A stretch of 64,000 nucleotides of DNA, from assembly GCA_965262245.1 (NCBI GenBank), contig OZ253507.1:5319728-5383727 (forward strand), read 5' to 3'. Positions 8,953 to 58,984 of the stretch are shown here, piece after piece (the stretch's first letter is position 1; every line of letters begins with the position of its first letter). The notes beneath the pieces were generated by a model. The model was not told the origin of the DNA, searched no databases, and worked only from the letters and a program-made list of their open reading frames with translations. The stretch comes from Candidatus Marinacidobacterales bacterium. Its GTDB lineage: Bacteria > Acidobacteriota > Vicinamibacteria > Marinacidobacterales > SMYC01. The position numbers and the translations under genes were made by a program.

Positions 8953-9693
8953 ATGCTCGTCAGAGCGCTCGCAATCATAGCGCTGATTTCGCTCGTGGCC
9001 GAGGGAGGACAATGGGAGCGCCGCCGCCGGCGCGAACCGCCACCGGTCGAGCTCACACCCACCATCGTGCCGAATTTCTCCTTCGCACGTGTGAGGTTTC
9101 ATTCCTTTCGTGAAGGCAGACGCCCCGGCTGGTCTCACGATTATCCGCGCGCCGAGCGCAACCTCCTGCGCATTCTGTCCGAGGTCACCGATGTCTACAC
9201 GGAGCCCGCGGCGCACACGATCGTCCCGCTCGACAGCCCGGATCTCATGCTCCATCCGCTGGCCTATTTCAGCGAGCCCGGCACTTGGGCGATCACGCCC
9301 GACGAAACCACGAATTTTCGCAACTATCTCGCGAAAGGCGGATTTGCCATCTTCGACGACTTCGACGGACCTTGGGATTGGGAGAACTTCGAAGCGTGCA
9401 TGGCAAGCGTCTTACCCGGACGCCACTTCGAGAGGCTCGAGCTCGAGGACCCTGTGTTCCAGAGCTTCTTCCATATCAAGACCCTCGAAATGCCGGCCGG
9501 CTATGGCTCCTATGAAGCGCCCTCGTTCTGGGGACTTCGAGACGATGACGGCCGGCTAATGGTCGTCGCCAATTTCAATAATGATATCGGGGAGTACTGG
9601 GAGTGGTCCGAGCACGGCTACTACCCAATCGAGCTCACAAACGAAGGGTACAAACTCGGAGTCAATTACGTCATCTATTCCCTGACCCACTGA
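8953..9693 (+). CDS. DUF4159-like secreted/membrane protein
   Basis: An N-terminal hydrophobic segment is followed by ERNLLRILSEVT, LHPLAYFSEPG and GGFAIFDDFDGPWDWENF, which recalls DUF4159. Confidence 0.55.
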   Translation: MLVRALAIIALISLVAEGGQWERRRRREPPPVELTPTIVPNFSFARVRFHSFREGRRPGWSHDYPRAERNLLRILSEVTDVYTEPAAHTIVPLDSPDLMLHPLAYFSEPGTWAITPDETTNFRNYLAKGGFAIFDDFDGPWDWENFEACMASVLPGRHFERLELEDPVFQSFFHIKTLEMPAGYGSYEAPSFWGLRDDDGRLMVVANFNNDIGEYWEWSEHGYYPIELTNEGYKLGVNYVIYSLTH

Positions 9694-11493: not shown

Positions 11494-12134
11494 TCATTTC
11501 GCCCAGAGAAAACCGTCCTTGTTCCAACCCTCGAGGTCCACGTAGCACCCGCTTCCTTCGCCAAATCCTCCCACCGCGGCGTAGTTGGAATGTCCCGCGG
11601 CGCAAACGGGATAATCGGCAAACGTGTAGCCGGACCGGTTGGCCGGGCACTCGAAAGCCAGATTCTTGTCATTGTCCATGGACCAGTTGAAGCTGTTCGT
11701 CTTGGCGGAGGTCCAAGTGTTTTCGGCGTTCTTCACAAACGATCTCTTCGCGACGCCGCATTCGTAGCGCCAGTAACCCACCGTGTTCAGCAAATTGATC
11801 ACCGCATCGCTCAACTTCGCCGCGGCGCTAACGTCGGAAACGTCTCCAACGGCGGCCGGCTGGTCCGCGTGAAAGATCGACCCGTTTTTGATGTTGATCA
11901 CCCTAGTCCAGCCGCCCGCGTCATTGGTCATATCGCAGAAGACCGAAATAAGCCCGAGCGGACCGGCCGCACCGTCGGGATCAATCTGATAAACCCCGTC
12001 GGGAGTAGTGGGTTTCGAGACCAGGAGAGCCGCGCAACTGATGGGAGTCGACGGTGTGGCCGTCCCTTTGGGGGCATCGCTCGAGGGCGTGACCGTGACG
12101 CGCCTCACGGTGGCGCAGTTGCCCGTTTTCCCTT
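11494..12134 (-). pseudogene. C-terminal part (about 210 codons) of a fibrinogen-related-domain (FReD-like) protein split by the IS1595-family transposon
   Basis: ISCAALLVSKPTTPDGVYQIDPDG..ISVFCDMTNDAGGWTRV resembles the FReD signature C..L....G.Y.I.P...VYCDM..DGGGWTV. The upstream end runs into IR-L. Confidence 0.6.
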
Positions 12135-12158
12135 GGGGATTATATACAATAGTAGCGA
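12135..12158. repeat. IR-L of the IS1595-family transposon
   Basis: It is an exact reverse complement of 15862-15885. Confidence 0.95.
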
Positions 12159-12168
12159 GATCCGGCAC

Positions 12169-12363
12169 TCAGCGCCGGCCCCTCGGCTTGTCAACCCACC
12201 GGATGTTGACGGGCCGAAGGAGTGCTCGAGCGAGCTGCTCTAGCGTTGTGCCCTTGGGAACGTCTGGGAGAATCGCTTCCGTCCCTTCAAGCTCGGCTCG
12301 CGTCGGCTGGTAGGTCGAGCGGACTAGCTCCACTGTTTTTGGCTTGGTTTTTTTGCTGCTCAT
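12169..12363 (-). CDS. Small basic hypothetical protein (64 aa) inside the transposon
   Basis: The ORF reads MSSKKTKPKTVELVRSTYQPTRAELEGTEAILPDVPKGTTLEQLARALLRPVNIRWVDKPRGRR. It is co-directional with the RM gene and lies between it and IR-L. By eye it is GC-rich, unlike the RM gene. Confidence 0.45.
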   Translation of the reverse strand: MSSKKTKPKTVELVRSTYQPTRAELEGTEAILPDVPKGTTLEQLARALLRPVNIRWVDKPRGRR

Positions 12364-12389
12364 TTGTTTATCAGACCCCCTGCTCTTCT

Positions 12390-14852
12390 CTATTTTCCTC
12401 CTTCAACCACTTCTAACTGTTCTTCATAAGACGGAAGAGACAATCTGGCGTGTTTGAGGAATCCACTCTTATTCCACGTTGCGTTATCTGAGTTAGACGC
12501 ATACTCTCGGAACATTCCCTCTTGAGTTTTGGCAACCCATTTCAGAGAAACTTGGTAGCCGTTGTCCTTCTTCCTAGTCAGGACATACGCATCGTCTGTC
12601 ATGGCATAATTTCCGTCCGGGAGATGATTGATACAGCCTGCTTTTCCCTTTCTCACAATGTGAATGCCTTCGTCTGAAATAACTTTGATCTTACGGTCGG
12701 CATTTTTAGGATCTTGGCAACGGTGGATACAAGTTGTGTTGCCGAGGTCTACGCTTCCTGTAAGCAGACGGTATCTTTTCTCTCCCTTGTGGAAGAGCAG
12801 CGAGTACAAATACTCCTCCGTCAGCCCGGAATTGCCTCCAGAAATCTCAAACAATTTTGATACCGGGAGATCCTTTACCTGGTATTCCTTGTAGTCGTAT
12901 AGCTTGGAATCTCTGTGGAGGTTCCAAGCTCGCAAATAGTACTCTGGGAGTAAAGTCAGGTATTTGTCAGAAAGAACCTTATCGATTGGTAGGTGGCACC
13001 CCTTCCTCATCTTCACCCTAGATCCCTTTTCATCTATCCATTCTGTCCCGCCGGATTCAGAGTCATCAAACTTGAGCCATCTTTCTTCTAGAATTCCAGG
13101 CATTTCCTCGCCGTCGGTGGTAACCCAACCAGAGATCTCGTCGTGAAGCCATCCATTGCGGTTGTTTCTGAGCTTGGTTGGAAAACGCTTATCGGAATTT
13201 GCTAGTCCATCATTGTCAATGATGTACATCCACACAGTGTTCTTCTGTGTGCGGGCAGGATTATCGCTACGCTTAGTCAAGAAGAGAGCGTATGTCTTCT
13301 CTTTCGTATAGGGGGCGAAAGCAAACTTCGGTAAAGAAATGACAGCAGTTATGTTGCACGTTTCGAGTAGTTCCTTTCGGAACGCCGCAAACGACGGGTT
13401 TTCAAGCACTCCGTCCGGCTGTATCACGCACGCTTGCCCTCCAACCTTAAGCAACTTACGAATCCTACAAAGAAAAGCGATCTCAGTTCTTATGGTAGAC
13501 ACCGCTGAGGTGTCCGCACGTATCGTGCCTGTTCCATACGGAGGATTGGTGATGACGTAATCAAATGTATTGATCGGGAACGGATGCTTCTTCGCGTGCA
13601 GAGAATTCGCGTCTTTCATGTTGGTGTGCCCGTCGCCAACAAGAAACATGTTCAGCCGTGTTCGTGAGATATTATCTTCTCTTACGTCAACACCATAAAA
13701 ACAACGGTGCTCCAGGAATGCGCGAGCCTCATTTTCATTGGCTTTGTTTCTATCGTAGTAATTCTTCAGAACCTTGTAGCCTTCAGTGAGAAAGCCCCCA
13801 GTCCCACACGCGGGGTCCAAGACCGTGAATTCCCTGTTGGGATTCCAGAACTGCTCCTTCAGAAGAAGCAGCTTGGCAAAAAGGTGAGCATAATGCCTAC
13901 GTGTGAAGTACTCTCCGAACTCCTTCTTTTCCTTGGAGGATGCAAACATTTCATAGACGGACCCGAAGAGGTCAAACCCGGCTCCATGAAGTGGCCTCAT
14001 TGAATTGGTGATTGCGTAAATGCGTCGAACGTCCTCTTTGGGAACTAGGGGATTCAGGCTTCCGATAATTGCACTTCTCAGAGTGTCAATGAGATTCTTG
14101 AACTCCTTAAAGTCTGTTTCTTCTGACAGTCGGCGCACATACGCTTCTATGTTTGCAACAAGCTTCTCGTCACTCTCATCTTCGCATTCTGACCAGTAGA
14201 TCTTACGTTTGTCCTTTCGGCTTTCCAAGATGGCTTTTTCTTCGTAAAACTCCAGCGATATGAAGCCGATAGTGAAATCTATCTTCTGCTGATTGTTTTT
14301 GAAATTGATTCCCCTGTATACGGCAGCTAATTCCCACAGTTTTTTGTTGAAGATCGCTTCGGATACCGTAGATATCGAATCCACATTGGTGTAGATGTTC
14401 GTAAGCTGCGGACTCTTCGTAAGGCGATGCTTGATCAACCTCAGAATGTCGATAGTCTGAAACTCACGAATCGGGTTCTTATTAAGTTTTATTTCCTTCA
14501 GCGTCTTGGCGTTATAGAACACAGACATCTTGCAGTTCGTGACGATAAAATATGGAAGCTTCAGCTTCGGTGCTTTCTGTTTTCCCTGCTTGAGCGCATC
14601 CTTCCAGTCTCTATCGTCAAACGAACAATCATCTTTGACTTCTGCGTAAGCAACTAGGTTTTCGATGAACTGTCCGTCATTGGAACCGTCGAATTCGAAT
14701 TCTGATATCAGGAGGTCTGGACGCGTCGATCCTGTATAATTATAAAATGTTGCATCATTAACGATCTGGCGAAAGGGAATGCTCAACTGTCCGACAAGAA
14801 CCTCATGTATCAGCCTAGAGACAGTTAGAGCTTCGTGCTTGCGTGACCTCAC
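12390..14852 (-). CDS. Fused restriction endonuclease / N6-adenine DNA methyltransferase / specificity polypeptide (Type IIG-like RM enzyme)
   Basis: The N-terminus has a PD-(D/E)XK motif (RPDLLISEFEF ... AYAEVKD). MTase motif I is VLDPACGTGGFL and motif IV is NPPYG (gamma order). The C-terminal ~250 aa resembles an HsdS-like TRD. The gene is visibly AT-richer than its flanks. Confidence 0.8.
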   Translation of the reverse strand: MRSRKHEALTVSRLIHEVLVGQLSIPFRQIVNDATFYNYTGSTRPDLLISEFEFDGSNDGQFIENLVAYAEVKDDCSFDDRDWKDALKQGKQKAPKLKLPYFIVTNCKMSVFYNAKTLKEIKLNKNPIREFQTIDILRLIKHRLTKSPQLTNIYTNVDSISTVSEAIFNKKLWELAAVYRGINFKNNQQKIDFTIGFISLEFYEEKAILESRKDKRKIYWSECEDESDEKLVANIEAYVRRLSEETDFKEFKNLIDTLRSAIIGSLNPLVPKEDVRRIYAITNSMRPLHGAGFDLFGSVYEMFASSKEKKEFGEYFTRRHYAHLFAKLLLLKEQFWNPNREFTVLDPACGTGGFLTEGYKVLKNYYDRNKANENEARAFLEHRCFYGVDVREDNISRTRLNMFLVGDGHTNMKDANSLHAKKHPFPINTFDYVITNPPYGTGTIRADTSAVSTIRTEIAFLCRIRKLLKVGGQACVIQPDGVLENPSFAAFRKELLETCNITAVISLPKFAFAPYTKEKTYALFLTKRSDNPARTQKNTVWMYIIDNDGLANSDKRFPTKLRNNRNGWLHDEISGWVTTDGEEMPGILEERWLKFDDSESGGTEWIDEKGSRVKMRKGCHLPIDKVLSDKYLTLLPEYYLRAWNLHRDSKLYDYKEYQVKDLPVSKLFEISGGNSGLTEEYLYSLLFHKGEKRYRLLTGSVDLGNTTCIHRCQDPKNADRKIKVISDEGIHIVRKGKAGCINHLPDGNYAMTDDAYVLTRKKDNGYQVSLKWVAKTQEGMFREYASNSDNATWNKSGFLKHARLSLPSYEEQLEVVEGGK

Positions 14853-15820
14853 CCCACGAGATCCTTGTAGCGAAGCTGCGCGCCTTCCATTTGGCTTGCG
14901 ACCGCCACCATTTGGTCGAGCGTATCGAGCTCTCGGATATTGTGGCGGGCGACAAACTCATCGACATATCTCTGTAAGTGCTTCGCGCTCATCTTGTGGA
15001 ACGTGCCTTTGTGCGCCCGCTTCAACATGCTCCAAAAGCTCTCGATCCCGTTCGTGTGCGCCATGCCGTTGACGTACTCCTTCACGGAGTGGCGGACGGT
15101 CTCGTGGTTCGGCAGCCCGACGTAGCCTCCGTGGTCGTCAGTATACACCTTCGCGCCAGGCTCGACGTTCTCGGCGACGAAGCCGTGTAGGGTGAGCTGG
15201 CCGGTGTCCTTGATGACCCTCGCGCTCACGCGGTTCGTCTTGCGGTCCTTCGCGCCGATTACCGCCGTCTTACCGACTGGGCCGCGCCCGGCGTTCAGCT
15301 TCTTGCAAGCGTGTTTGTTCCGCTCTTTGCCGCCGAAAAAAGTCTCGTCGATTTCGACCGGGCCACCGAACGGACCATCATCAGTGTCGAACGCCTTGCG
15401 GATGCGGTGAGCCATGAACCATGCAGATTTCTGAGTTATCGCGAGTTCGCGGTGCAACTTCATGCTCGCAACGCTTTTCAGGTTGGTCACAACTAAGTAG
15501 AGCGCAAAGAGCCAGTCCTGATAGCCGATGTTGGCCGAGTCCATGAACGTCTCGGTTTTCGCGCTGAAGTACTTACCGCAGCTACCACGCTTTACACTTT
15601 TTCGGCACCGAAACGGCATAGTCGGATGCTTGGCATCGACTTGCACGTTCTCAGAGCCGCAGCGTGGGCAGCTGATACCGTCCGGCCACCGCTGAGCGAT
15701 GAACCAGCGTTCGGCGGTTTCATCGTCGGGGAACATCCGGTAAAACTGTTTGGCCGTTATGCCTTTGCGGTGCGCTTTTCCTGGTGCGTTGCAAGCCATT
15801 GCGTTATCTCCTATGTACAA
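14849..15820 (-). CDS. IS1595-family transposase (N-terminal zinc ribbon plus ISXO2-like DDE domain)
   Basis: Motifs are CPRCGS..FRCR..CGKYFS, then DETFFGG, VYTDDHGGY and NGIESFWSMLKR. Its stop overlaps the RM gene's GTG start (GTGA at 14849-14852). Confidence 0.85.
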   Translation of the reverse strand: MYIGDNAMACNAPGKAHRKGITAKQFYRMFPDDETAERWFIAQRWPDGISCPRCGSENVQVDAKHPTMPFRCRKSVKRGSCGKYFSAKTETFMDSANIGYQDWLFALYLVVTNLKSVASMKLHRELAITQKSAWFMAHRIRKAFDTDDGPFGGPVEIDETFFGGKERNKHACKKLNAGRGPVGKTAVIGAKDRKTNRVSARVIKDTGQLTLHGFVAENVEPGAKVYTDDHGGYVGLPNHETVRHSVKEYVNGMAHTNGIESFWSMLKRAHKGTFHKMSAKHLQRYVDEFVARHNIRELDTLDQMVAVASQMEGAQLRYKDLVG

Positions 15821-15861
15821 CGCAATCTTACCAAATAGTAGCGTCTATGTCAACCTGTTTT

Positions 15862-15885
15862 TCGCTACTATTGTATATAATCCCC
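15862..15885. repeat. IR-R of the IS1595-family transposon
   Basis: It is an exact reverse complement of 12135-12158. Confidence 0.95.
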
Positions 15886-16182
15886 TTTCCCTTCGTAGAT
15901 GAAGTTCGCACGGACCACTTTCTTGGTGCGCTCGGTGATGTCCCTATAGACGTGCTGGACGACGCCGGTGTGTTTCGTCAGACCGTCGGAGCTCGCTTCG
16001 CCGGAGCCGAGGCTCATGGTCTCGTACTCCATGGGTTCGCCCTCCTCATCCCAGAAGATCTGGAGCCTCTGCGTTCCGCCAGGGACGCCGACGTAGCTGT
16101 AGAAAAGCCCAACGGCGTTCCCATTCACGTAGCCCGACTTCAGTCCCTCAATATTGACGTTCCGCTCCATCCGCAACACCAT
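15886..16182 (-). pseudogene. N-terminal part (99 codons) of the gene split by the IS1595-family transposon
   Basis: The ORF ..VVRANFIYEGK runs into IR-R. It joins in frame to 12126-11494 once the element and one TSD copy are removed. Confidence 0.6.
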
Positions 16183-51265: not shown

Positions 51266-51508
51266 GTGAAAGTCACCCAAAAGATCCAGCTCGAAGAAAA
51301 GGACCTCGACTTCATCGAAGCGGTCTTCTCTATCCTGGATTACAAGACCAAAAGCGAGTACATGCGGGAAGCGATTCTGGCCAAGATCCGTGATGACAAA
51401 AAAAAACTGCGCGAGATGAAGTGCCGGGAGGCGATGGAAGCCTACGGCGAGGAGACGACGGACAACGTCTTCGAATCCATCGAGGCGGACGATTTTGAAG
51501 ACCGGTGA
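51266..51508 (+). CDS. Antitoxin partner of the MazF-like toxin
   Basis: An 80-aa acidic-tailed ORF that overlaps the toxin gene by 14 nt. Confidence 0.6.
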   Translation: MKVTQKIQLEEKDLDFIEAVFSILDYKTKSEYMREAILAKIRDDKKKLREMKCREAMEAYGEETTDNVFESIEADDFEDR

Positions 51509-51854
51509 CGTTTACCTCGTGAATCTCGATCCCACCGTAGGTGACGAGATCCGCAAGCGGCGCCCGGTCGTGGTGCTCAACCCCGGGCACGATGAAAAGC
51601 TGCGCCTTTCGATCATCGTTCCGATTACGGCGTGGAACGCCCGTTGGGAGACCAATCCGTTCTTCTTGACCATCCACCCCGAGGGCCGCCACGGCTTAGA
51701 AAAGAAATCTGCCGTCGACTGTTTTCAATTGAGGGCCCTGAGTCACGGTCGTTTCGTGAAGAAACTCGGATCTTTGAATCGGTACGAGATCGATCACATC
51801 AAATCTTCGGTCGCGCTCATCCTCGGCATCGAACCGGAACACTGCGAGCTATAG
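51495..51854 (+). CDS. mazF: MazF/PemK-family endoribonuclease toxin
   Basis: The ORF reads GDVYLVNLDPTVGDEIRKRRPVVVLN..IIVPIT..AVDCFQLRALS. Confidence 0.8.
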   Translation: MKTGDVYLVNLDPTVGDEIRKRRPVVVLNPGHDEKLRLSIIVPITAWNARWETNPFFLTIHPEGRHGLEKKSAVDCFQLRALSHGRFVKKLGSLNRYEIDHIKSSVALILGIEPEHCEL

Positions 51855-53717: not shown

Positions 53718-55088
53718 ATGCACGCGATTCTAGTCTTCGTCGCGCTCACTTTTGTTCTCTCGATTCCTGGCGAAGCCCAGCCGCAATCCTCCGCGGACGC
53801 TCACGTCATTCTAATTTCTCTGGACGGATTCGCGGCCTCCCGCCTGGAGGGCGAGGAGCTCGAGCTGCCCAACTTGAGGGCGGTAGCGCGATCCGGCGCG
53901 TGGGCTAAGAGCAGTGAGACCGTTTTTCCCAGCACCGATCTTCCCGCGCATACTTCGATTCTGACCGGTGTTCCTCCGCGACTTCACCGAGTGCTCGGCA
54001 ACCGCATGCACAATCGTGAGACCGGGGAGTACTTTCAAGTCACGAACAAGCCCCGCTCGGAGACTGTCAAGGTACTGACCCTTTTCGACGCGGCGAAGAG
54101 CAAAGGGTACCGCACCGCCTCATTTTTCTGGCCGGCGAGTCGAGAGGACCCCGCGGTGGATCACAACATCCCCTTCGTGCTCACCGGGGACCTGAGAGCG
54201 GACATCAACGCATCCGACCCCGCCTTTCTCGAGGAGCTTCGTGAGAACGAAGTGTTTATCGACTTTTTCTTTTCCTGGTACAGCGACCTTCCTCTACAAG
54301 TCACGTCGGATCGAATTTTGACGCGGGCCGCGGTTCACGTCATCGAGAAATACAAACCGCAGTTGCTCGCGATCCGACTGCCCGCGATGGACCGCTATCA
54401 ACACGAATATGGGCCGGACCACTATCTCGCGAAGGCCGCCTTTACCGCAGCGGACTACAACGTCGGGCTGATTCGCCGCGCGACCGAACGCGCCGGGATC
54501 GCTAACGAGACGACTTTGGTCATCGTCTCCGACCATGGGTTCCATACGATCGAGCATTCCGTCAACGTCCACCCGTTGTTCGAACAGGCAGGTCTTCTCG
54601 AAGAAGTCAATCTGCACCCTTACTACTTGTCCGTTGTCGTCGAGCTGACGGAGCAGTTCGATGCGCAAAAGCATCAGAAATCTCTCGACCGCGTCTTCGA
54701 GAAGGCGCTGGCACTCGAGGGGATTTCCCGCGTGGTTCGCCCCTACGAGTTCGCAGAGCTCGGCCTACCGAGTTATGACGAAGACCCCCATGTGTTGGGA
54801 CACTACATCTTCTTAGGGGACTCGGACACGCGCGTCGTCATCGACGAGGCTAGCGAATCGACCCGAAGAACGGTCTTGAGCGCCCCGATTCACGCTCATG
54901 ACTATATTCCGGACGACGATCACATCGACCCCCTTTTTCTCATCGCAGGGAATGGGATCCGCTCGGGAGTCCGGCTCGGCAGAGTTCACAACCTCGACGT
55001 GGCACCGACGATCGCCTATTTGCTAGACCTGCAGATGAGTAACTTGAGCGGCAAGATTCTTTCGGAGGCCTTGATAGACCCACCGTAG
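53718..55088 (+). CDS. Type I phosphodiesterase / nucleotide pyrophosphatase (alkaline-phosphatase superfamily), secreted
   Basis: The start is at MHAILVFVALTFVLS. Motifs are VILISLDGFAASRL, FPSTDLPAHTSILTG and IVSDHGF. Confidence 0.75.
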   Translation: MHAILVFVALTFVLSIPGEAQPQSSADAHVILISLDGFAASRLEGEELELPNLRAVARSGAWAKSSETVFPSTDLPAHTSILTGVPPRLHRVLGNRMHNRETGEYFQVTNKPRSETVKVLTLFDAAKSKGYRTASFFWPASREDPAVDHNIPFVLTGDLRADINASDPAFLEELRENEVFIDFFFSWYSDLPLQVTSDRILTRAAVHVIEKYKPQLLAIRLPAMDRYQHEYGPDHYLAKAAFTAADYNVGLIRRATERAGIANETTLVIVSDHGFHTIEHSVNVHPLFEQAGLLEEVNLHPYYLSVVVELTEQFDAQKHQKSLDRVFEKALALEGISRVVRPYEFAELGLPSYDEDPHVLGHYIFLGDSDTRVVIDEASESTRRTVLSAPIHAHDYIPDDDHIDPLFLIAGNGIRSGVRLGRVHNLDVAPTIAYLLDLQMSNLSGKILSEALIDPP

Positions 55089-55091
55089 GCA

Positions 55092-55400
55092 CGTTCGACT
55101 GTTGGATTGGAATGTCTACGAAACAGAAAGGGCAATTCGTCGCTCTCGACCCGGATACGGGCGAGCTCCTGTGGAGCTCGAAAGGCCGCATGGGCGACAA
55201 CGCCGCCTTCGTGGTCGCGGGCGATACCTCCTCATTCTCGACAACAGCGCCGAGCTAGCTATCCTTCCGCAAGACGCGAAGGCGTTCGAGCCGCATCGGC
55301 GCTACCGTGTGGCGGACACGGAGACTTGGGCACATCCCGTTCCCACGAAAGTAGGCATTCTTATCAAAGAGCTCGATAGCCTGGCCCTTGGAGGTAAGAA
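55092..55400 (+). pseudogene. C-terminal fragment of a PQQ-like beta-propeller protein, one frameshift
   Basis: GQFVALDPDTGELLWSSKGRMGDNAAFVVAGD is followed, in another frame, by LLILDNSAELAILPQDAKAFEPHRRYRVADTETWAHPVPTKVGILIKE. It starts directly after the preceding gene's stop. Confidence 0.55.
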
Positions 55401-55644
55401 GCAAAAAACTCTTTACAAAACGGCAACTACAGTGTATACTCAATTCGGACGTGAAATGAAACGCACCGCAAAGCAACTCTCGCATCTGACCCGGGCCGGT
55501 AAAGGCCGGAGGACGGCGGAGCTGTCTATGTCATCGACCATTGAATCCTCCTCGACGTGGCAAATAAAGCTTCGAGGGATTTATTTGAGTTTCGTCGAGA
55601 GAAGGGGCTTCATGAACTAGGACCCAAGGCGACCTAGCCAATGA

Positions 55645-55676
55645 AGCCCGACGCCGAAAGGCAGTCGGGCTTTTTC
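55645..55676 (+). terminator. Rho-independent terminator-like hairpin
   Basis: The hairpin is AGCCCGAC-GCCGAAAGGCA-GTCGGGCT followed by TTTTT. Confidence 0.6.
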
Positions 55677-55705
55677 AGTTTCAGGGGGAAGGCAGGCCAG
55701 TTAAG

Positions 55706-55780
55706 GCTCCTGTGGTGTAGGGGTTAGCATGCGAGACTTTCAATCTTGTGATCCGGGTTCGAGTCCCGGCAGGAGTACCA
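55706..55780 (+). tRNA. tRNA-Glu (UUC)
   Basis: Hand-folded cloverleaf: acceptor GCTCCTG/CAGGAGT, anticodon arm CGAGA-CTTTCAA-TCTTG, T-arm CCGGG-TTCGAGT-CCCGG, A73, encoded CCA. Confidence 0.85.
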
Positions 55781-55789
55781 AAGTGAAGA

Positions 55790-55876
55790 GGAAGGGTACC
55801 CAAGTGGTAAGGGGCCGGTTTGCTAAACCGGTAGGTCGTTCGCGGCGCGAGGGTTCAAATCCCTCTCCTTCCTCCA
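55790..55876 (+). tRNA. tRNA-Ser (GCU), class II
   Basis: Hand fold: acceptor GGAAGGG/TCCTTCC, anticodon arm CCGGT-TTGCTAA-ACCGG, long variable arm, T-arm GAGGG-TTCAAAT-CCCTC, encoded CCA. Confidence 0.85.
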
Positions 55877-55881
55877 TTCGT

Positions 55882-55958
55882 AGGCGATTAGCTCAGTTGC
55901 GAAGAGCGCCTGTTTTACACGCAGGAGGCCGAAGGTTCGACTCCTTCATCGCCTACCA
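55882..55958 (+). tRNA. tRNA-Val (UAC)
   Basis: Hand fold: acceptor AGGCGAT/ATCGCCT, anticodon arm CCTGT-TTTACAC-GCAGG, T-arm GAAGG-TTCGACT-CCTTC, A73, CCA. The D-loop reads AGTTGCGAA, so GG is not in its usual place. Confidence 0.8.
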
Positions 55959-55966
55959 CTTTCTTT

Positions 55967-56042
55967 CCGGCATGGGGTGGCTGGTTGTGACCGCACGTCT
56001 GATAAGCGTGTAAGCATCGTTCGATTCGATGATGCCGGACCA
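55967..56042 (+). tRNA. tRNA-Ile (GAU)
   Basis: Hand fold: acceptor CCGGCAT/ATGCCGG (C1-G72), anticodon arm CACGT-CTGATAA-GCGTG, T-arm CATCG-TTCGATT-CGATG, A73, CCA. Confidence 0.8.
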
Positions 56043-56064
56043 GATTGACGGGCGTTGGTGTAGT

Positions 56065-56139
56065 AGCGGAGTGGCGCAATGGTAGCGCGTCGGGCTCATA
56101 ACTCGAAGGCCGAGAGTTCGAATCTCTCCTCCGCCACCA
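56065..56139 (+). tRNA. tRNA-Met (CAU) with an A1xC72 mismatch
   Basis: Hand fold: acceptor AGCGGAG/CTCCGCC, D-arm GCGC-AATGGTA-GCGC, anticodon arm TCGGG-CTCATAA-CTCGA, T-arm GAGAG-TTCGAAT-CTCTC, A73, CCA. Confidence 0.8.
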
Positions 56140-56205
56140 AACTTGAAGAGAGAAAAAGAAGGAGTAGGCAGATGGAATCCGAAGACGGTTCGTCATCCTC
56201 GATGA

Positions 56206-56292
56206 GGAGGGTGCCGCTGAATGGCCGGCAACCGGTCTCGAAAACCGGGGTGGCTCGCAAGGCCAAGGGTTCGATTCCTTCACCCTCCTCCA
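56206..56292 (+). tRNA. tRNA-Ser (CGA), class II
   Basis: Hand fold: acceptor GGAGGGT/ACCCTCC, anticodon arm CCGGT-CTCGAAA-ACCGG, long variable arm, T-loop TTCGATT, CCA. Confidence 0.8.
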
Positions 56293-56359
56293 GCCTTCAC
56301 CCGATGCAGTTCACGTGGGCTTCGGCTAGGTAAACCCTGGTAGTTGCGCTGCGAAGGCT

Positions 56360-56396
56360 GTCCGCCGTAGCGCGAAGCGCGAAGGCGGACTTTATT
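56360..56396 (+). terminator. Terminator-like hairpin inside the tRNA array
   Basis: The hairpin is GTCCGCC-GTAGCGCGAAGCGCGAA-GGCGGAC followed by TTTATT. Confidence 0.4.
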
Positions 56397-56487
56397 GTAG
56401 CGGCTGCGGAGACGGTGGACCGCGCCGGGTTGTAGCCCGGGATTCGCGAGAGCGGCGTTGGGGGTTCGAATCCTCCCCGCTACACCA
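56397..56487 (+). tRNA. tRNA-Tyr (GUA), class II, irregular anticodon arm
   Basis: Hand fold: acceptor GTAGCGG/CCGCTAC, D-arm GCGG-AGACGGTGGA-CCGC, anticodon region CCGGG-TTGTAG(C)-CC(C)GG, 18-nt variable arm, T-arm GGGGG-TTCGAAT-CCTCC, A73, CCA. Confidence 0.7.
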
Positions 56488-56493
56488 GATCGT

Positions 56494-56568
56494 GCCGGCG
56501 TGATTGCAACTGGCAGACACACTCGGCTCAAACCCGAGTTGGTGGTGGTTCGAGTCCACCCGCCGGTA
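56494..56568 (+). tRNA. tRNA-like gene with anticodon CAA (Leu by anticodon) but a short variable arm; poor D-stem, no encoded CCA
   Basis: Hand fold: acceptor GCCGGCG/CGCCGGT, anticodon arm CTCGG-CTCAAAC-CCGAG, 5-nt variable loop TTGGT, T-arm GGTGG-TTCGAGT-CCACC, A73, followed by TCA. Confidence 0.5.
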
Positions 56569-56587
56569 TCAAGTTTTAGTTTCAAGT

Positions 56588-56663
56588 GCTTCGGTAGCTC
56601 AGCAGGTAGAGCGTCCCGTTGAAGCCGGGAAGGGCGTTCGTTCGATTCGGACTCGGAGCACCA
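56588..56663 (+). tRNA. tRNA-Phe (GAA)
   Basis: Hand fold: acceptor GCTTCGG/TCGGAGC, D-arm GCTC-AGCAGGTA-GAGC, anticodon arm TCCCG-TTGAAGC-CGGGA, T-arm GTTCG-TTCGATT-CGGAC, A73, CCA. Confidence 0.85.
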
Positions 56664-56669
56664 ATTAGC

Positions 56670-56745
56670 GCGACCGTGGTGTTCAACGGCAGCATGCGAG
56701 CCTTCCAAGCTTGGGGTGCGGGTTCGAGTCCCGCCGGTCGCTCCA
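56670..56745 (+). tRNA. tRNA-Gly (UCC)
   Basis: Hand fold: acceptor GCGACCG/CGGTCGC, anticodon arm CGAGC-CTTCCAA-GCTTG, T-arm GCGGG-TTCGAGT-CCCGC, U73, CCA. Confidence 0.85.
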
Positions 56746-56755
56746 AATAGTACGT

Positions 56756-56832
56756 AGCTCCGTAGCCCAACTGGCAGAGGCAACGGACCGAGATTCCGTC
56801 CAGTGGGAGTTCGAATCTCCCCGGAGCTACCA
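56756..56832 (+). tRNA. Class-I tRNA with anticodon GAG (Leu by anticodon), C33, A73
   Basis: Hand fold: acceptor AGCTCCG/CGGAGCT, D-arm GCCC-AACTGGCAG-AGGC, anticodon arm ACGGA-CCGAGAT-TCCGT, 5-nt variable loop CCAGT, T-arm GGGAG-TTCGAAT-CTCCC, CCA. Confidence 0.7.
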
Positions 56833-56856
56833 GTTCGAGGAGAACGAAGATGATTT

Positions 56857-56931
56857 ACGCCCGTAGTTCAACGGCAGAATGGCTGGCTTTTAACCAGTTC
56901 GATGGAGGTTCGAATCCTCCCGGGCGTACCA
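56857..56931 (+). tRNA. tRNA-Lys (UUU)
   Basis: Hand fold: acceptor ACGCCCG/CGGGCGT, D-arm GTTC-AACGGCA-GAAT, anticodon arm GCTGG-CTTTTAA-CCAGT, T-arm GGAGG-TTCGAAT-CCTCC, A73, CCA. Confidence 0.85.
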
Positions 56932-56944
56932 ACGGCTTCTCGCT

Positions 56945-57014
56945 TCCGGGAGTTCTGGGACGGCAGGGTGTCCAAAGCCCAAGCAGCAGGGTTCGATTCC
57001 TTGTCCCGGTGCCA
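56945..57014 (+). tRNA. Short (70 nt) tRNA-Trp (CCA)-like gene with a reduced D-arm
   Basis: Hand fold: acceptor TCCGGGA/TCCCGGT (U1xU72), only ~11 nt where the D-arm should be, anticodon region (A)GGGT-GTCCAAA-GCCC(A), T-arm CAGGG-TTCGATT-CCTTG, G73, CCA. Confidence 0.45.
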
Positions 57015-57020
57015 ATCATC

Positions 57021-57096
57021 AGCTCGGTAGTCCAACGGCAGAGACAGCGGGCTTAGACCCCGTCTAGTGAGAGTTCGAATCTCTCCCGAGCTACCA
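57021..57096 (+). tRNA. Canonical class-I cloverleaf with anticodon UAG (Leu by anticodon), A73
   Basis: Hand fold: acceptor AGCTCGG/CCGAGCT, D-arm GTCC-AACGGCAG-AGAC, anticodon arm GCGGG-CTTAGAC-CCCGT, 5-nt variable loop CTAGT, T-arm GAGAG-TTCGAAT-CTCTC, CCA. Confidence 0.8.
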
Positions 57097-57114
57097 AATC
57101 AAGATCTCATTTGA

Positions 57115-57190
57115 GCGTCAGTGGTCTAACCGATAAGGCACTTGGCTTCGAACCAAGGCGTTGCGGGTTCAACTCCTGCCTGGCGCTCCA
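57115..57190 (+). tRNA. tRNA-Arg (UCG)
   Basis: Hand fold: acceptor GCGTCAG/CTGGCGC, D-arm GTCT-AACCGATA-AGGC (no GG in the D-loop), anticodon arm CTTGG-CTTCGAA-CCAAG, T-arm GCGGG-TTCAACT-CCTGC, U73, CCA. Confidence 0.8.
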
Positions 57191-57191
57191 T

Positions 57192-57247
57192 GGCCCTGTG
57201 GCTGAAGGGAGTAGGCGCTCGATTCCTAATCGAGATCATGCGCGTTC
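57192..57247 (+). tRNA. tRNA-Arg (CCU), 5' portion (interrupted in the T-loop by the IS3-family element)
   Basis: Hand fold: acceptor GGCCCTG, D-arm GCTG-AAGGGAGT-AGGC, anticodon arm CTCGA-TTCCTAA-TCGAG, variable loop ATCAT, T-stem GCGCG, then TTC. Confidence 0.75.
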
Positions 57248-57317
57248 CCTCTGTGCCAACATCGCTGAGACACTTCGCCCCTTGAAATTAGTGTAGAGGG
57301 TGGAGGAGGATCAACGC

Positions 57318-57758
57318 ATGAGTATTTTGATTGAGAGAGAGACCTCGGCGGGATCGGCAGGAGCCCGTAGGGCGACTAGAGATCCCGCCGGCCGCGATGC
57401 GGCGGGGGTCGAGGATCCCGAAGTGCGCGAGCAAGCGAAGCGTCGACGCTTTAGCGCGGAGTACAAGCTGCGGATAGTGCGTGAGGCCGATGCCTTCGGC
57501 AAGGGTGACGGTGACGTTGCTGCTCTTCTGCGTCGAGAGGGCTTGTACTCGTCGCAATTATCGAGTTGGCGTCGCCAACGTGACGAGATCGCCAAGGTTG
57601 GGATGACGTCGAGAAAGCGAGGCCGGAAGGCGAAGGCAGAGGATCCACGGGTCAAGGAGCTCGAGCGCGAGAACGCCCGGCTCCAACGTCGCCTGGCTCG
57701 GGTGGAGACGATGCTGGAGATCCAAAAAAAACCTCCGAACTACTGGGGATCCCCCTGA
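57318..57758 (+). CDS. IS3-family transposase OrfA
   Basis: The ORF carries an HTH/leucine-zipper OrfA (RRRFSAEYKLRIVREA.., ..LERENARLQRRLARVETMLEIQKK). It ends just after the A8 run. Confidence 0.8.
   Translation: MSILIERETSAGSAGARRATRDPAGRDAAGVEDPEVREQAKRRRFSAEYKLRIVREADAFGKGDGDVAALLRREGLYSSQLSSWRRQRDEIAKVGMTSRKRGRKAKAEDPRVKELERENARLQRRLARVETMLEIQKKPPNYWGSP
57724..57731 (+). promoter_or_regulatory. A8 slippery run, candidate -1 programmed frameshift site for OrfAB
   Basis: The sequence is CCAAAAAAAACC. The -1 frame continues as KKTSELLGIPLNPLESDEND. Confidence 0.55.
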
Positions 57759-57789
57759 ATCCACTCGAGAGCGACGAGAACGACTGATC

Positions 57790-58920
57790 GTGGCGGCCGA
57801 GGAGCTGGCGGGGCGGATTGGGCAAACGGCGGAAGCCTGCGAGGCTCTGGGTGTGGCTCGTTCCACGTTGTATCGCAGGCGCCAGCCGGTGACGCCCAAA
57901 CCGAAGCGTCGTCCTCGGCCGCACCGAGCTCTCGACGAAACTGAGCGCGAGGAAGTCCTCGGGGCCTTGCACTGTGAGCGGTTCGTCGACAAGGCGCCCG
58001 CTCAGGTGTGGGCTACGCTTCTGGACGAGGGAACCTACCTCTGCTCGATTCGCACGATGTATCGGATTTTGGAGGAGCACGGCGAGGTCCGAGAGCGCCG
58101 GAACCAACGGCGCCATCCGAACTACACCAAGCCGGAGCTGTTGGCCGAAGCGCCGAACCAGGTTTGGTCGTGGGATATCACGAAGCTTCGTGGCCCCCTC
58201 AAGTGGACCTACTACCTCTACGTCATCCTCGACATCTTCTCCCGCTACGTGGTTGGCTGGATGCTGGCTCACCGAGAAAGTGCCGCGCTCGCCCAACGCC
58301 TCATCGCCGAGAGCTGTCGCAAGCAGGACATTGAACCCGACCAGCTCACCCTTCACGCGGACCGTGGCAGCTCGATGAGGAGCAAGCCCGTGGGTCTGCT
58401 CCTGGCTGACCTCGGAGTTACCAAGACCCACTCCAGGCCTTACGTCTCGAACGACAATCCCTACTCCGAGTCTCAGTTCAAGACGATGAAGTACTGTCCT
58501 CAGTTTCCGAGCCGCTTTGGTTCCGCCGAAGACGGCCGGCTATTCTGCTGCGGTTTCTTCGACTACTACAATTTTCACCCCCGGCACTCGGGAATCGGCC
58601 TTATGACACCGGCCGACGTTCACTATGGTCGAGCCGAACAGCTCACCACCGCTCGGCGCCAGATCCTTCTCGAAGCTCAACAGGCTCATCCCGAACGCTT
58701 CGTTCGCGGAACGCCGCAACCGCCCGTTTTGCCTCCGCAGGCCTGGATCAACCCGCCGCTGGAAAAAACGACGCTCCACGATGCCGCACAAGCCCCTCTC
58801 GCGGCGGCGTCCATACCTGGGGTACCTCCTTTTTCTGCTTCACGCAACGAGATCTTGATCGATGTTGACGTCGATCGCGCCGACCTCACGAGTCTCCCCA
58901 CCATAATCGAGGCTCACTAA
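57790..58920 (+). CDS. IS3-family transposase OrfB (rve integrase core)
   Basis: The ORF reads VWSWDITKL..YLYVILDIFSRYVVGWM..LTLHADRGSSM..SNDNPYSESQFKTMKY..HSGIGLMTPADVHYG. Confidence 0.85.
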   Translation: MAAEELAGRIGQTAEACEALGVARSTLYRRRQPVTPKPKRRPRPHRALDETEREEVLGALHCERFVDKAPAQVWATLLDEGTYLCSIRTMYRILEEHGEVRERRNQRRHPNYTKPELLAEAPNQVWSWDITKLRGPLKWTYYLYVILDIFSRYVVGWMLAHRESAALAQRLIAESCRKQDIEPDQLTLHADRGSSMRSKPVGLLLADLGVTKTHSRPYVSNDNPYSESQFKTMKYCPQFPSRFGSAEDGRLFCCGFFDYYNFHPRHSGIGLMTPADVHYGRAEQLTTARRQILLEAQQAHPERFVRGTPQPPVLPPQAWINPPLEKTTLHDAAQAPLAAASIPGVPPFSASRNEILIDVDVDRADLTSLPTIIEAH

Positions 58921-58961
58921 ATGCAGCTCGCGAGTGTCCCAAAGTTGTTGACATGTTCCGG

Positions 58962-58984
58962 TTCGAGTCGCGCCAGGGCCTCCA
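58962..58984 (+). tRNA. tRNA-Arg (CCU), 3' portion
   Basis: TTCGAGT-CGCGC-CAGGGCC-T-CCA complements the GCGCG T-stem and the GGCCCTG acceptor strand found 1.7 kb upstream. Confidence 0.75.

Follow-up and report, generated by a model that had tools for sequence, protein, structure and literature searches.

The tRNA array and its leucine genes

The window, i.e., the whole stretch of 64,000 nucleotides analysed here from contig OZ253507.1 (assembly GCA_965262245.1) of a Candidatus Marinacidobacterales bacterium, carries on its forward strand a tRNA array in which three tRNA-Leu genes combine a leucine anticodon with a short variable arm (class I). The array comprises 14 intact tRNA genes, all found by ARAGORN and supported by the Rfam tRNA model, with short spacers of 5–104 nt in between (Table 1). 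A sequence-only reading of this DNA had singled out the three leucine genes by their coordinates, anticodon loops, A73 and the C33 of the GAG gene, and had noted that the array lacks a tRNA-Leu with a long variable arm (class II); ARAGORN, Rfam and direct reading of the sequence bear out all of these points. Taking bacterial tRNA-Leu to be class II, it had left three options: tRNAs that are still leucylated, anticodon-remoulded copies of another isoacceptor that misread or recode, and variants shaped to escape anticodon-loop nucleases.

All three genes (numbered #1 to #3 for CAA, GAG and UAG) fold into a 7/5 cloverleaf in which the variable loop is short and a variable stem is lacking, and place a leucine anticodon (NAG or YAA) at positions 34–36 of a seven-nucleotide loop: CUCAAAC in the CAA gene, CCGAGAU with C33 in the GAG gene and CUUAGAC in the UAG gene. 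Their length is 76–78 nt according to ARAGORN. The variable loop counts five nucleotides in each of them (UUGGU, CCAGU and CUAGU, respectively) and includes U48, which is able to form the A15:U48 Levitt pair. The discriminator is A73 in 3/3 genes, and CCA is encoded in the GAG and UAG genes, with UCA in its place in the CAA gene. ARAGORN reports no tRNA-Leu of 80 nt or more in the array; long arms are kept by the two 87-nt Ser genes and the 91-nt Tyr gene. Neither G3:U70 nor G-1 is seen in the three Leu genes upon direct reading of the sequence.

Genes #2 and #3 keep the complete core, consisting of a 3-bp D stem, the 13.22 mismatch, A14, A15, G18G19, C20-A20a-G21, U48 and A73. Both start with an A1-U72 pair and have a leucine-type D arm (GCCC AACUGGCAGA GGC in tRNA-Leu(GAG) and GUCC AACGGCAGA GAC in tRNA-Leu(UAG)), which follows the consensus UAGCCCAAYNGGCAGAGGCA either exactly or with a compensated U11-A24 pair. 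The GAG and UAG genes look fully functional. Gene #1 conforms to the leucine-type D arm in its loop part only: the D-loop core, U48 and A73 are retained, but the D stem is altered, with a bulged U and an A10.C25 mismatch, and the first pair is G1-U72. Outside the window, where loci are denoted by our own numbers (L), tRNA-Leu(GAG) is 88% identical to a tRNA-Leu(CAG) of a Planctomycetota metagenome-assembled genome (MAG; L124).

Table 1. Coordinates of the tRNA array, its leucine genes and the adjoining mobile element in the window.
Feature	Position	Strand	Basis and remarks
tRNA array, in order: Glu, Ser, Val, Ile, Met, Ser, Tyr, Leu-CAA, Phe, Gly, Leu-GAG, Lys, Leu-UAG, Arg-UCG	55706..57190	+	
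Class I tRNA-Leu(CAA), gene #1	56494-56568	+	ARAGORN; Rfam tRNA model, 40.2 bits
Class I tRNA-Leu(GAG), gene #2	56756-56832	+	ARAGORN; Rfam tRNA model, 51.6 bits
Class I tRNA-Leu(UAG), gene #3	57021-57096	+	ARAGORN; Rfam tRNA model, 57.4 bits
tRNA-Arg(CCU), 5' fragment	57192..57247	+	Interrupted in the T loop by the IS3-type element; intact gene in L245 at 9475-9550
IS3-type insertion sequence	57248..58960	+	Pfam; strain-specific, absent from this site in L243 and L245
IS3 element, open reading frame 1, HTH_Tnp_1 domain	57300-57758	+	Pfam
IS3 element, open reading frame 2, rve integrase core	57790-58920	+	Pfam
tRNA-Arg(CCU), 3' fragment: GTTCGAGTCGCGCCAGGGCCTCCA	58961..58984	+	Comparison with the intact L245 gene

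The family of class I tRNA-Leu

An anticodon-blind scaffold pattern was built from features common to the three window genes, comprising the 3' half of the D loop with the D stem, 20 free positions over the anticodon arm, and the end of the variable loop with the T arm. In the window, it hits exactly the three Leu sites, with 0.00 matches expected in shuffles. Elsewhere, it matches at least 120 viral contigs in IMG/VR and at least 120 bacterial genome contigs (GTDB, one genome per species). The family counts below refer to the matches listed in these scans. Without exception (243/243), the matches carry a leucine anticodon at positions 34–36 (UAA 155, CAA 41, UAG 38, GAG 6, CAG 2 and AAG 1). 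Most of the genome matches belong to Actinomycetota (Nocardia, Mycobacterium, Gordonia, Corynebacterium, Amycolatopsis, Arthrobacter, Nocardioides and Ilumatobacteraceae), and at 110 of the 120 genome loci the class I Leu gene is the lone tRNA within 8 kb of chromosome, a pattern as for a housekeeping gene. A minority lies in tRNA arrays of other phyla (Abditibacteriaceae, Chloroflexaceae, Myxococcota, Rhodocyclaceae and Planctomycetota). Loci L121–L240 hold class I tRNA-Leu genes, mainly UAA and CAA but also UAG, in many Actinomycetota genera; a stand-alone class I tRNA-Leu appears to be the normal chromosomal form in many genera of this phylum, far beyond the single Streptomyces case.

Cultured phages carry homologs as well. 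Gene #3 matches 63 cultured-phage records and the family consensus matches 367, with hosts including Mycobacterium, Streptomyces, Erwinia, Salmonella, Escherichia, Bacillus, Lactobacillus and Prochlorococcus. Most of the phage homologs listed are annotated as plain 'tRNA-Leu', and two E. coli phage genes that we read are both 77-nt class I Leu tRNAs. The phage genes (e.g., in Erwinia phiEa21-4, Escherichia vB_EcoM_D4 and EscoHU1, Bacillus PBC2, Lactobacillus LP65, Streptomyces Coruscant and cluster C mycobacteriophages) share with the window genes the scaffold, a length of 73–77 nt, A73 and the leucine anticodons, and several class I Leu isoacceptors often occur in one phage array. In contrast, the window array is chromosomal without phage genes around it, and its gene #3 is 76–85% identical to the phage homologs listed. 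The three window genes are further members of this large and conserved family of short-arm tRNA-Leu, a kind that is already known. The premise that bacterial tRNA-Leu is class II was thus too general: class I is widespread in Actinomycetota and phages, and one case, in Streptomyces coelicolor, has been characterised (PMC6614811).

Of the 240 parsed members of the family, 238 have A73, 219 have U8-A9 and 226 have A14-A15. The D arm, GCCC-AAY(N)GGCAGA-GGC, forms a 3-bp stem with a C13.A22 mismatch around the loop A14 A15 Y16 N17 G18 G19 C20 A20a G21, a D-loop layout that is identical in the class II Leu genes of the same loci. The variable loop reads NNAGU, with U48 able to pair with A15; the frequency of U48 is not independent evidence, as it is fixed by the search pattern. 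In 81 non-redundant members, pairing in the cloverleaf (7/5, 5-nt variable loop) holds in 98.6% of cells, compensatory change is present at 17 of the 20 pairs, and the covariation score is 0.862, compared to 0.207 for shuffles and 0.11–0.15 for slid-partner controls.

A covariance model of the family (R1; 74 positions, of which ~23 derive from the search pattern) aligns all three window genes end to end, with 86.9 bits for GAG, 85.3 for UAG and 65.9 for CAA (E-values from 1e-24 to 2e-18). The other window tRNAs score at most 58.5 bits (Lys 58.5, Met 47.7 and Phe 47.6 are next best); the comparison of isotype-specific scores, which had been proposed as a check, places all three Leu genes above the other isotypes. 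In eight other arrays, class I Leu genes obtain 63–85 bits and non-Leu genes at most 57, while class II Leu genes of the same arrays still obtain 32–51 bits (most 44–51) despite the arm insertion. Genes #2 and #3 are core members of the family, and gene #1 is borderline, at its lower edge. The anticodon-blind census is a stronger argument than the R1 scores. A simple D-loop motif was also considered as a leucine marker and dropped, because phage arrays have it in some of their Lys, Asn, Ile, Trp and His genes too.

These data bear directly on the option that the genes are class I isoacceptors for Val, Ile, Met, Phe or Lys with a remoulded anticodon, which would be charged as their parent and would misread or recode UUG and CUN codons. 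All three anticodons are a single substitution away from Met, Phe, Ile or Val anticodons, and the Lys and Met genes of the array share D-loop and T-arm motifs with the Leu genes; the Met T arm equals that of gene #3, and the Lys gene reaches 58.5 bits on R1. Missense-suppressor tRNAs with leucine anticodons are moreover known in Acidobacteria, namely the allo-tRNAs (Mukai 2017, PMC5389517), which resemble the window genes in being unusual soil-bacterial tRNAs, frequently with mobile elements or toxin-antitoxin genes nearby. Allo-tRNAs, however, have 8/4 or 9/3 stems, a long variable arm and serine identity, as opposed to the 7/5 stems, short loop and leucine-type core observed here. Core and anticodon both indicate leucine, so the genes do not show the mismatched identity of allo-tRNAs or tRNAProX. 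Since all 243 scaffold matches listed have leucine anticodons, and orthologs change only inside the leucine anticodon set (see below), the window genes are not remoulded misreading tRNAs in our reading. Valyl-, isoleucyl-, methionyl- and phenylalanyl-tRNA synthetases depend on the anticodon and would not accept CAA, GAG or UAG; a G3:U70 pair, long arm or G-1 that could give a non-leucine identity independent of the anticodon is absent. We consider remoulding very improbable.

Conservation and decay of the array

Related arrays were retrieved from metagenomes by a GAG-specific scan. In L292, which like the window has the phosphodiesterase gene upstream, 17 tRNAs lie in DNA that is 93–96% identical to the window; L282 has 22 tRNAs in 2.2 kb and L380 is a short contig. 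Gene order is conserved across the three. The ortholog of gene #1 has the anticodon CAG in L292 and CAA in L282 and L380, the ortholog of gene #3 has CAG in L292 (by a U34-to-C change) and UAG in L380, and L282 and L380 contain an additional class I Leu(UAA). Anticodon switches are hence confined to the leucine set, which is what anticodon-independent charging would predict. Compared to L292, the window differs by 22 substitutions over 1157 nt of tRNA and by 19 over 401 nt of spacer (Fisher p = 0.0036): the tRNA bodies are under purifying selection and evolve more slowly than the spacers. Gene #2 is identical in both, against a divergence of 7% for the entire array. The pattern-matched core of gene #2 (from the 3' half of the D loop through the T arm) is identical in L243–L245 and L292. 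Most ortholog differences in genes #2 and #3 are found at loop positions 32, 33, 37 and 38, which change faster than the tRNA body.

The array also bears clear marks of erosion. Contigs L242–L245 from the European Nucleotide Archive (ENA) metagenomes, whose DNA is 99.4–99.7% identical to the window, carry the window array with different 3' ends. In L245, the alignment breaks at window position 57247 and resumes at 58961, and GTTC forms a target duplication at the two ends of the insertion sequence; the split tRNA-Arg(CCU) marks the original 3' continuation of the array. The L242 variant breaks at ~8826 (window 56543), inside Leu-CAA at the junction of variable loop and T stem, and the L244 variant at ~9106 (window 56823), inside the 3' acceptor strand of Leu-GAG. 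Both are rearrangement breakpoints, and they hint that the tRNA genes concerned serve as sites of recombination or integration. Ile-UAU and Thr-CGU of L292 are absent from the window array.

The CAA gene deserves separate mention. The sequence-only reading had described a poor D stem and a missing CCA, both of which are seen, but the former is largely a conserved variant. The orthologs in L292, L282 and L380 are 78 nt long, encode CCA, keep U25 and have in common a D stem of A10-U25, U11-A24, a bulged U and G12-C23, i.e., a 3-bp stem; as the bulged U is common to all three, the odd D arm is a conserved variant. The window copy and its strain-level relatives carry two further changes, U25-to-C and C74-to-U, neither of which occurs in the three orthologs examined. 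Both look deleterious, and this copy is possibly decaying or losing function. A CCA-adding enzyme could serve as a repair route for its 3' end.

A rival explanation is that the three genes are non-functional relics, pseudogenes or never expressed, in a silent and decaying array of horizontal origin. Besides the insertion in tRNA-Arg(CCU), the variants truncated inside Leu-CAA and Leu-GAG, the tRNA-like remnants at 56932-57020 and the two private changes in the CAA copy, a scan of 55000-57400 for sigma-70 promoters and intrinsic terminators yields nothing convincing: the only two promoter-like sites are weak and lie inside the upstream open reading frame, and a terminator is not detected. Long arrays are reported to be poorly transcribed under normal conditions (Santamaria-Gomez 2021, PMC8421152). 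The same paper, however, describes the long array of Anabaena as induced and useful under translational stress. Slow evolution of the tRNA bodies, the perfect cloverleaves of genes #2 and #3 with scores at the top of the family range, and a gene #2 left unchanged amid a diverging array also argue against relics, and we regard this explanation as unlikely.

The surroundings of the array are those of an ordinary chromosome. Phage origin of the window was considered and rejected, as a megablast of 40000-64000 against cultured phages returned nothing and Pfam identifies ordinary chromosomal genes: Ser/Thr kinases with PEGA and PD40 domains, multicopper oxidases, an MFS transporter, a GAF/PAS histidine kinase and a phosphodiesterase that is 100% identical to a protein on L242–L245. 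Judged from the best relatives with a name, Vicinamibacteria/Acidobacteriota MAGs, the host is probably an uncultured acidobacterium, on a weak phylum call. A Mutator-family transposase (Pfam) lies farther 3' than the IS3-type element. The array itself is horizontally spread, given its patchy distribution, its synteny with L292, L282 and L380, the adjoining IS3-type and Mutator transposases and the strain-variant 3' ends. Pfam gave nothing informative on the flanks of the window array or of L282, and PADLOC found nothing in seven neighbouring open reading frames.

In these respects, the array resembles the long tRNA arrays or array units (Santamaria-Gomez 2021, PMC8421152; Tran 2016, PMC4758250; Morgado 2018, PMC5966550), which are dense, supernumerary clusters on a single strand with a patchy distribution, syntenic copies and transposases. 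An array unit is defined by at least 20 tRNA genes at two or more per kb, according to Tran 2016 (PMC4758250). With 14 intact genes and one split gene in 1.55 kb, the window array has the density but not the number, and the homolog with 22 genes in L282 indicates that the window copy is a reduced derivative.

The 89-nt spacer at 56932-57020 (+) contains a tRNA-like remnant with a T arm, an acceptor 3' strand and CCA (..CAGGGTTCGATTCCTTGTCCCGGTGCCA) and no recognisable anticodon arm; it is called by neither ARAGORN nor Rfam, scores 8.5 bits on R1, and is conserved in L380 from 56946 onward. Rfam scores the tRNA-Ser(CGA) at 56206-56292 (+) best with its tRNA-Sec model, at 43.1 bits, where the gathering score is 47. 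A drawing with an acceptor stem of 8 bp, a T stem of 4 bp and a long D stem closed by a 4-nt loop is possible and resembles the 8/4 layout of allo-tRNA/tRNASer (Mukai 2017, PMC5389517); the gene is conserved in L282 and L292. By hand reading of the acceptor ends, both serine genes of the array (55790-55876 and 56206-56292) have an apparent U73. The usual discriminator of bacterial tRNA-Ser is G73. A gene for a PemK/MazF-family toxin (PF02452, called on the identical stretch of L242/L244) lies at 51495-51854 (+), ~4 kb upstream of the array, and DruA-domain genes (PF14236) flank the array in the strain variants L242–L244. At 12001-16000, a low-GC (guanine plus cytosine) island (0.50–0.51 compared to ~0.60 elsewhere) contains the gene for an 820-aa N6-adenine methyltransferase of Eco57I/MmeI type; it probably represents a restriction-modification module gained by horizontal transfer.

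Charging, decoding and the anticodon loop

The closest biochemical precedent is the type I tRNALeu(CAA) of S. coelicolor, with variable loop ACAGC, which is leucylated by ScoLeuRS, the bacterial-type leucyl-tRNA synthetase (LeuRS) of this organism, about half as efficiently as the type II species (Fan 2019, NAR 47:6369, PMC6614811). Human mitochondrial LeuRS leucylates it as well. The S. coelicolor tRNA, compared here by its published description only, is like the window genes in its 5-nt variable loop, A73, U8-A14 and G18G19. It differs by C48 and the ACAGC loop where the family here has U48 and NNAGU, and was missed by our pattern because of this C48. It is also a single housekeeping CAA gene beside four class II isoacceptors, whereas the window has three class I isoacceptors on a mobile array in a non-actinobacterial host. 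The elements recognised by E. coli LeuRS, as listed in the same paper, include A14, A15-U48, G18G19 and A73. A73 had been put forward as the main LeuRS identity element in E. coli: this is appropriate for E. coli LeuRS but not for ScoLeuRS, for which A73 is dispensable and a variable loop of five nucleotides is the minimum (PMC6614811). Animal mitochondrial tRNALeu(UUR/CUN) are class I as well, with A73 and a bacterial-type LeuRS, but they have a degenerate core and a separate evolutionary origin; the human mitochondrial tRNALeu is no substrate of ScoLeuRS (PMC6614811).

We consider it likely that the three genes are genuine class I tRNA-Leu isoacceptors on a horizontally spread and eroding array, which provide extra leucine decoding and no recoding. 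Of the options listed at the outset, continued leucylation is thus the best supported, as inferred from A73 in all three genes, the leucine-type D arm and U48 of genes #2 and #3 and the exclusively leucine anticodons of the family; misreading copies find no support, the scaffold and its orthologs occurring only with leucine anticodons. The array would be transcribed as a polycistron and then processed, upon which the acceptor end and tertiary core, and not the anticodon, may direct charging by LeuRS. Decoding as leucine would then involve UUG for the CAA gene, CUC/CUU for the GAG gene, and CUA/CUG or all CUN for the UAG gene, such that the predicted effect is an added capacity for leucine decoding.

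Some findings weigh against this view. The array is decaying (the split tRNA-Arg(CCU), the lost Ile-UAU and Thr-CGU, and the two variants truncated in Leu genes), a convincing promoter or terminator did not emerge from the scan of 55000-57400, the CAA copy combines an A10.C25 mismatch with the absence of CCA, and C33 of the GAG copy departs from U33. The R1 scores are partly circular, at ~23 of the 74 positions, because the pattern was derived from the window genes. Finally, E. coli LeuRS was inactive in vitro on the type I tRNALeu of S. coelicolor (PMC6614811), so charging depends on the host enzyme.

U33 is near-universal in tRNAs, and the C at this position of gene #2 (window 56788) therefore merits a closer look. 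A shifted anticodon register that would restore U33 was considered and dropped, as CCGAGAU has no U at 32 or 33. In GAG-specific scans that left position 33 free, C33 occurs in 37 of the 99 distinct GAG-type cores listed, distributed over the loops UCGAGAG (17), UCGAGGG (7), CCGAGAU (5), CCGAGGC (3), UCGAGAA (3) and CCGAGGA (2). In the anticodon-blind set, it is found in 6/240 members, and in 4/234 (about 2%) outside the GAG type. This comparison draws on the viral and metagenome loci L059, L216 and L248–L382. As C33 recurs across several different loops and stems, it is a recurrent trait of the GAG isoacceptor and not a lesion. We found no description of C33 enrichment in class I tRNALeu(GAG) in the literature searched. 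The nearest orthologs of gene #2 have the loops CUGAGUU / UUGAGUU (L282 1356-1434; L380 523-599), i.e., U33 with an unusual U37; position 37 is almost always a purine in tRNAs.

A possible rationale for these features is that the tRNAs are functional for leucine and form a back-up set, in which the short arm, C33 and the fast-changing loop positions 32, 37 and 38 reflect escape from tRNA-targeting nucleases. The enrichment of C33 in the GAG type (37/99 compared to 4/234), the concentration of ortholog differences in genes #2 and #3 at 32, 33, 37 and 38, and the PemK/MazF-family toxin gene upstream are consistent with this, and phage tRNAs are reported to evade anticodon nucleases by mutations in the loop (PMC10264068). 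However, no nuclease specific for tRNA-Leu or for long arms was identified in the window, and PADLOC detected nothing in the neighbouring genes. Moreover, Actinomycetota use the same class I architecture for housekeeping, so no defence role has to be invoked for the short arm as such, and the loop variation may be isoacceptor-specific or due to relaxed constraint. In the escape option raised by the sequence-only reading, the fast-changing loop positions and the recurrent C33 are observed, and the link to a nuclease is hypothetical. The idea is compatible with genuine leucine tRNAs and would add a selective reason for them, but we hold it to be rather improbable. It is equally doubtful, in the wider family, that the short arm, C33 and fast 32/37/38 hide tRNA-Leu of phages and mobile elements from nucleases that sense a long arm or the canonical U33. 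If true, such arrays would be nuclease-resistant back-up leucine decoders. In a narrower version, C33 might mark class I tRNALeu(GAG) as a functional signature not described before.

These results serve mainly as a correction, in that a leucine anticodon on a short-arm tRNA from a bacterium or phage should not be taken as evidence of recoding. In the literature searched, only Fan 2019 treats type I tRNALeu of bacteria or phages, and short-arm Leu tRNAs are not mentioned in the accessible text of the papers on long arrays, allo-tRNAs, phage tRNA evasion and Schlafen. The family is large and conserved, yet it passes for a rarity in textbooks and in the only biochemical paper found (PMC6614811). 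It is very common on phages and mobile arrays, which enter hosts whose LeuRS may not charge such tRNAs; E. coli phages carry class I Leu genes although the type I tRNA from Streptomyces was not accepted by E. coli LeuRS. Along with this, the strong enrichment of C33 in the GAG isoacceptor may merit the attention of specialists.

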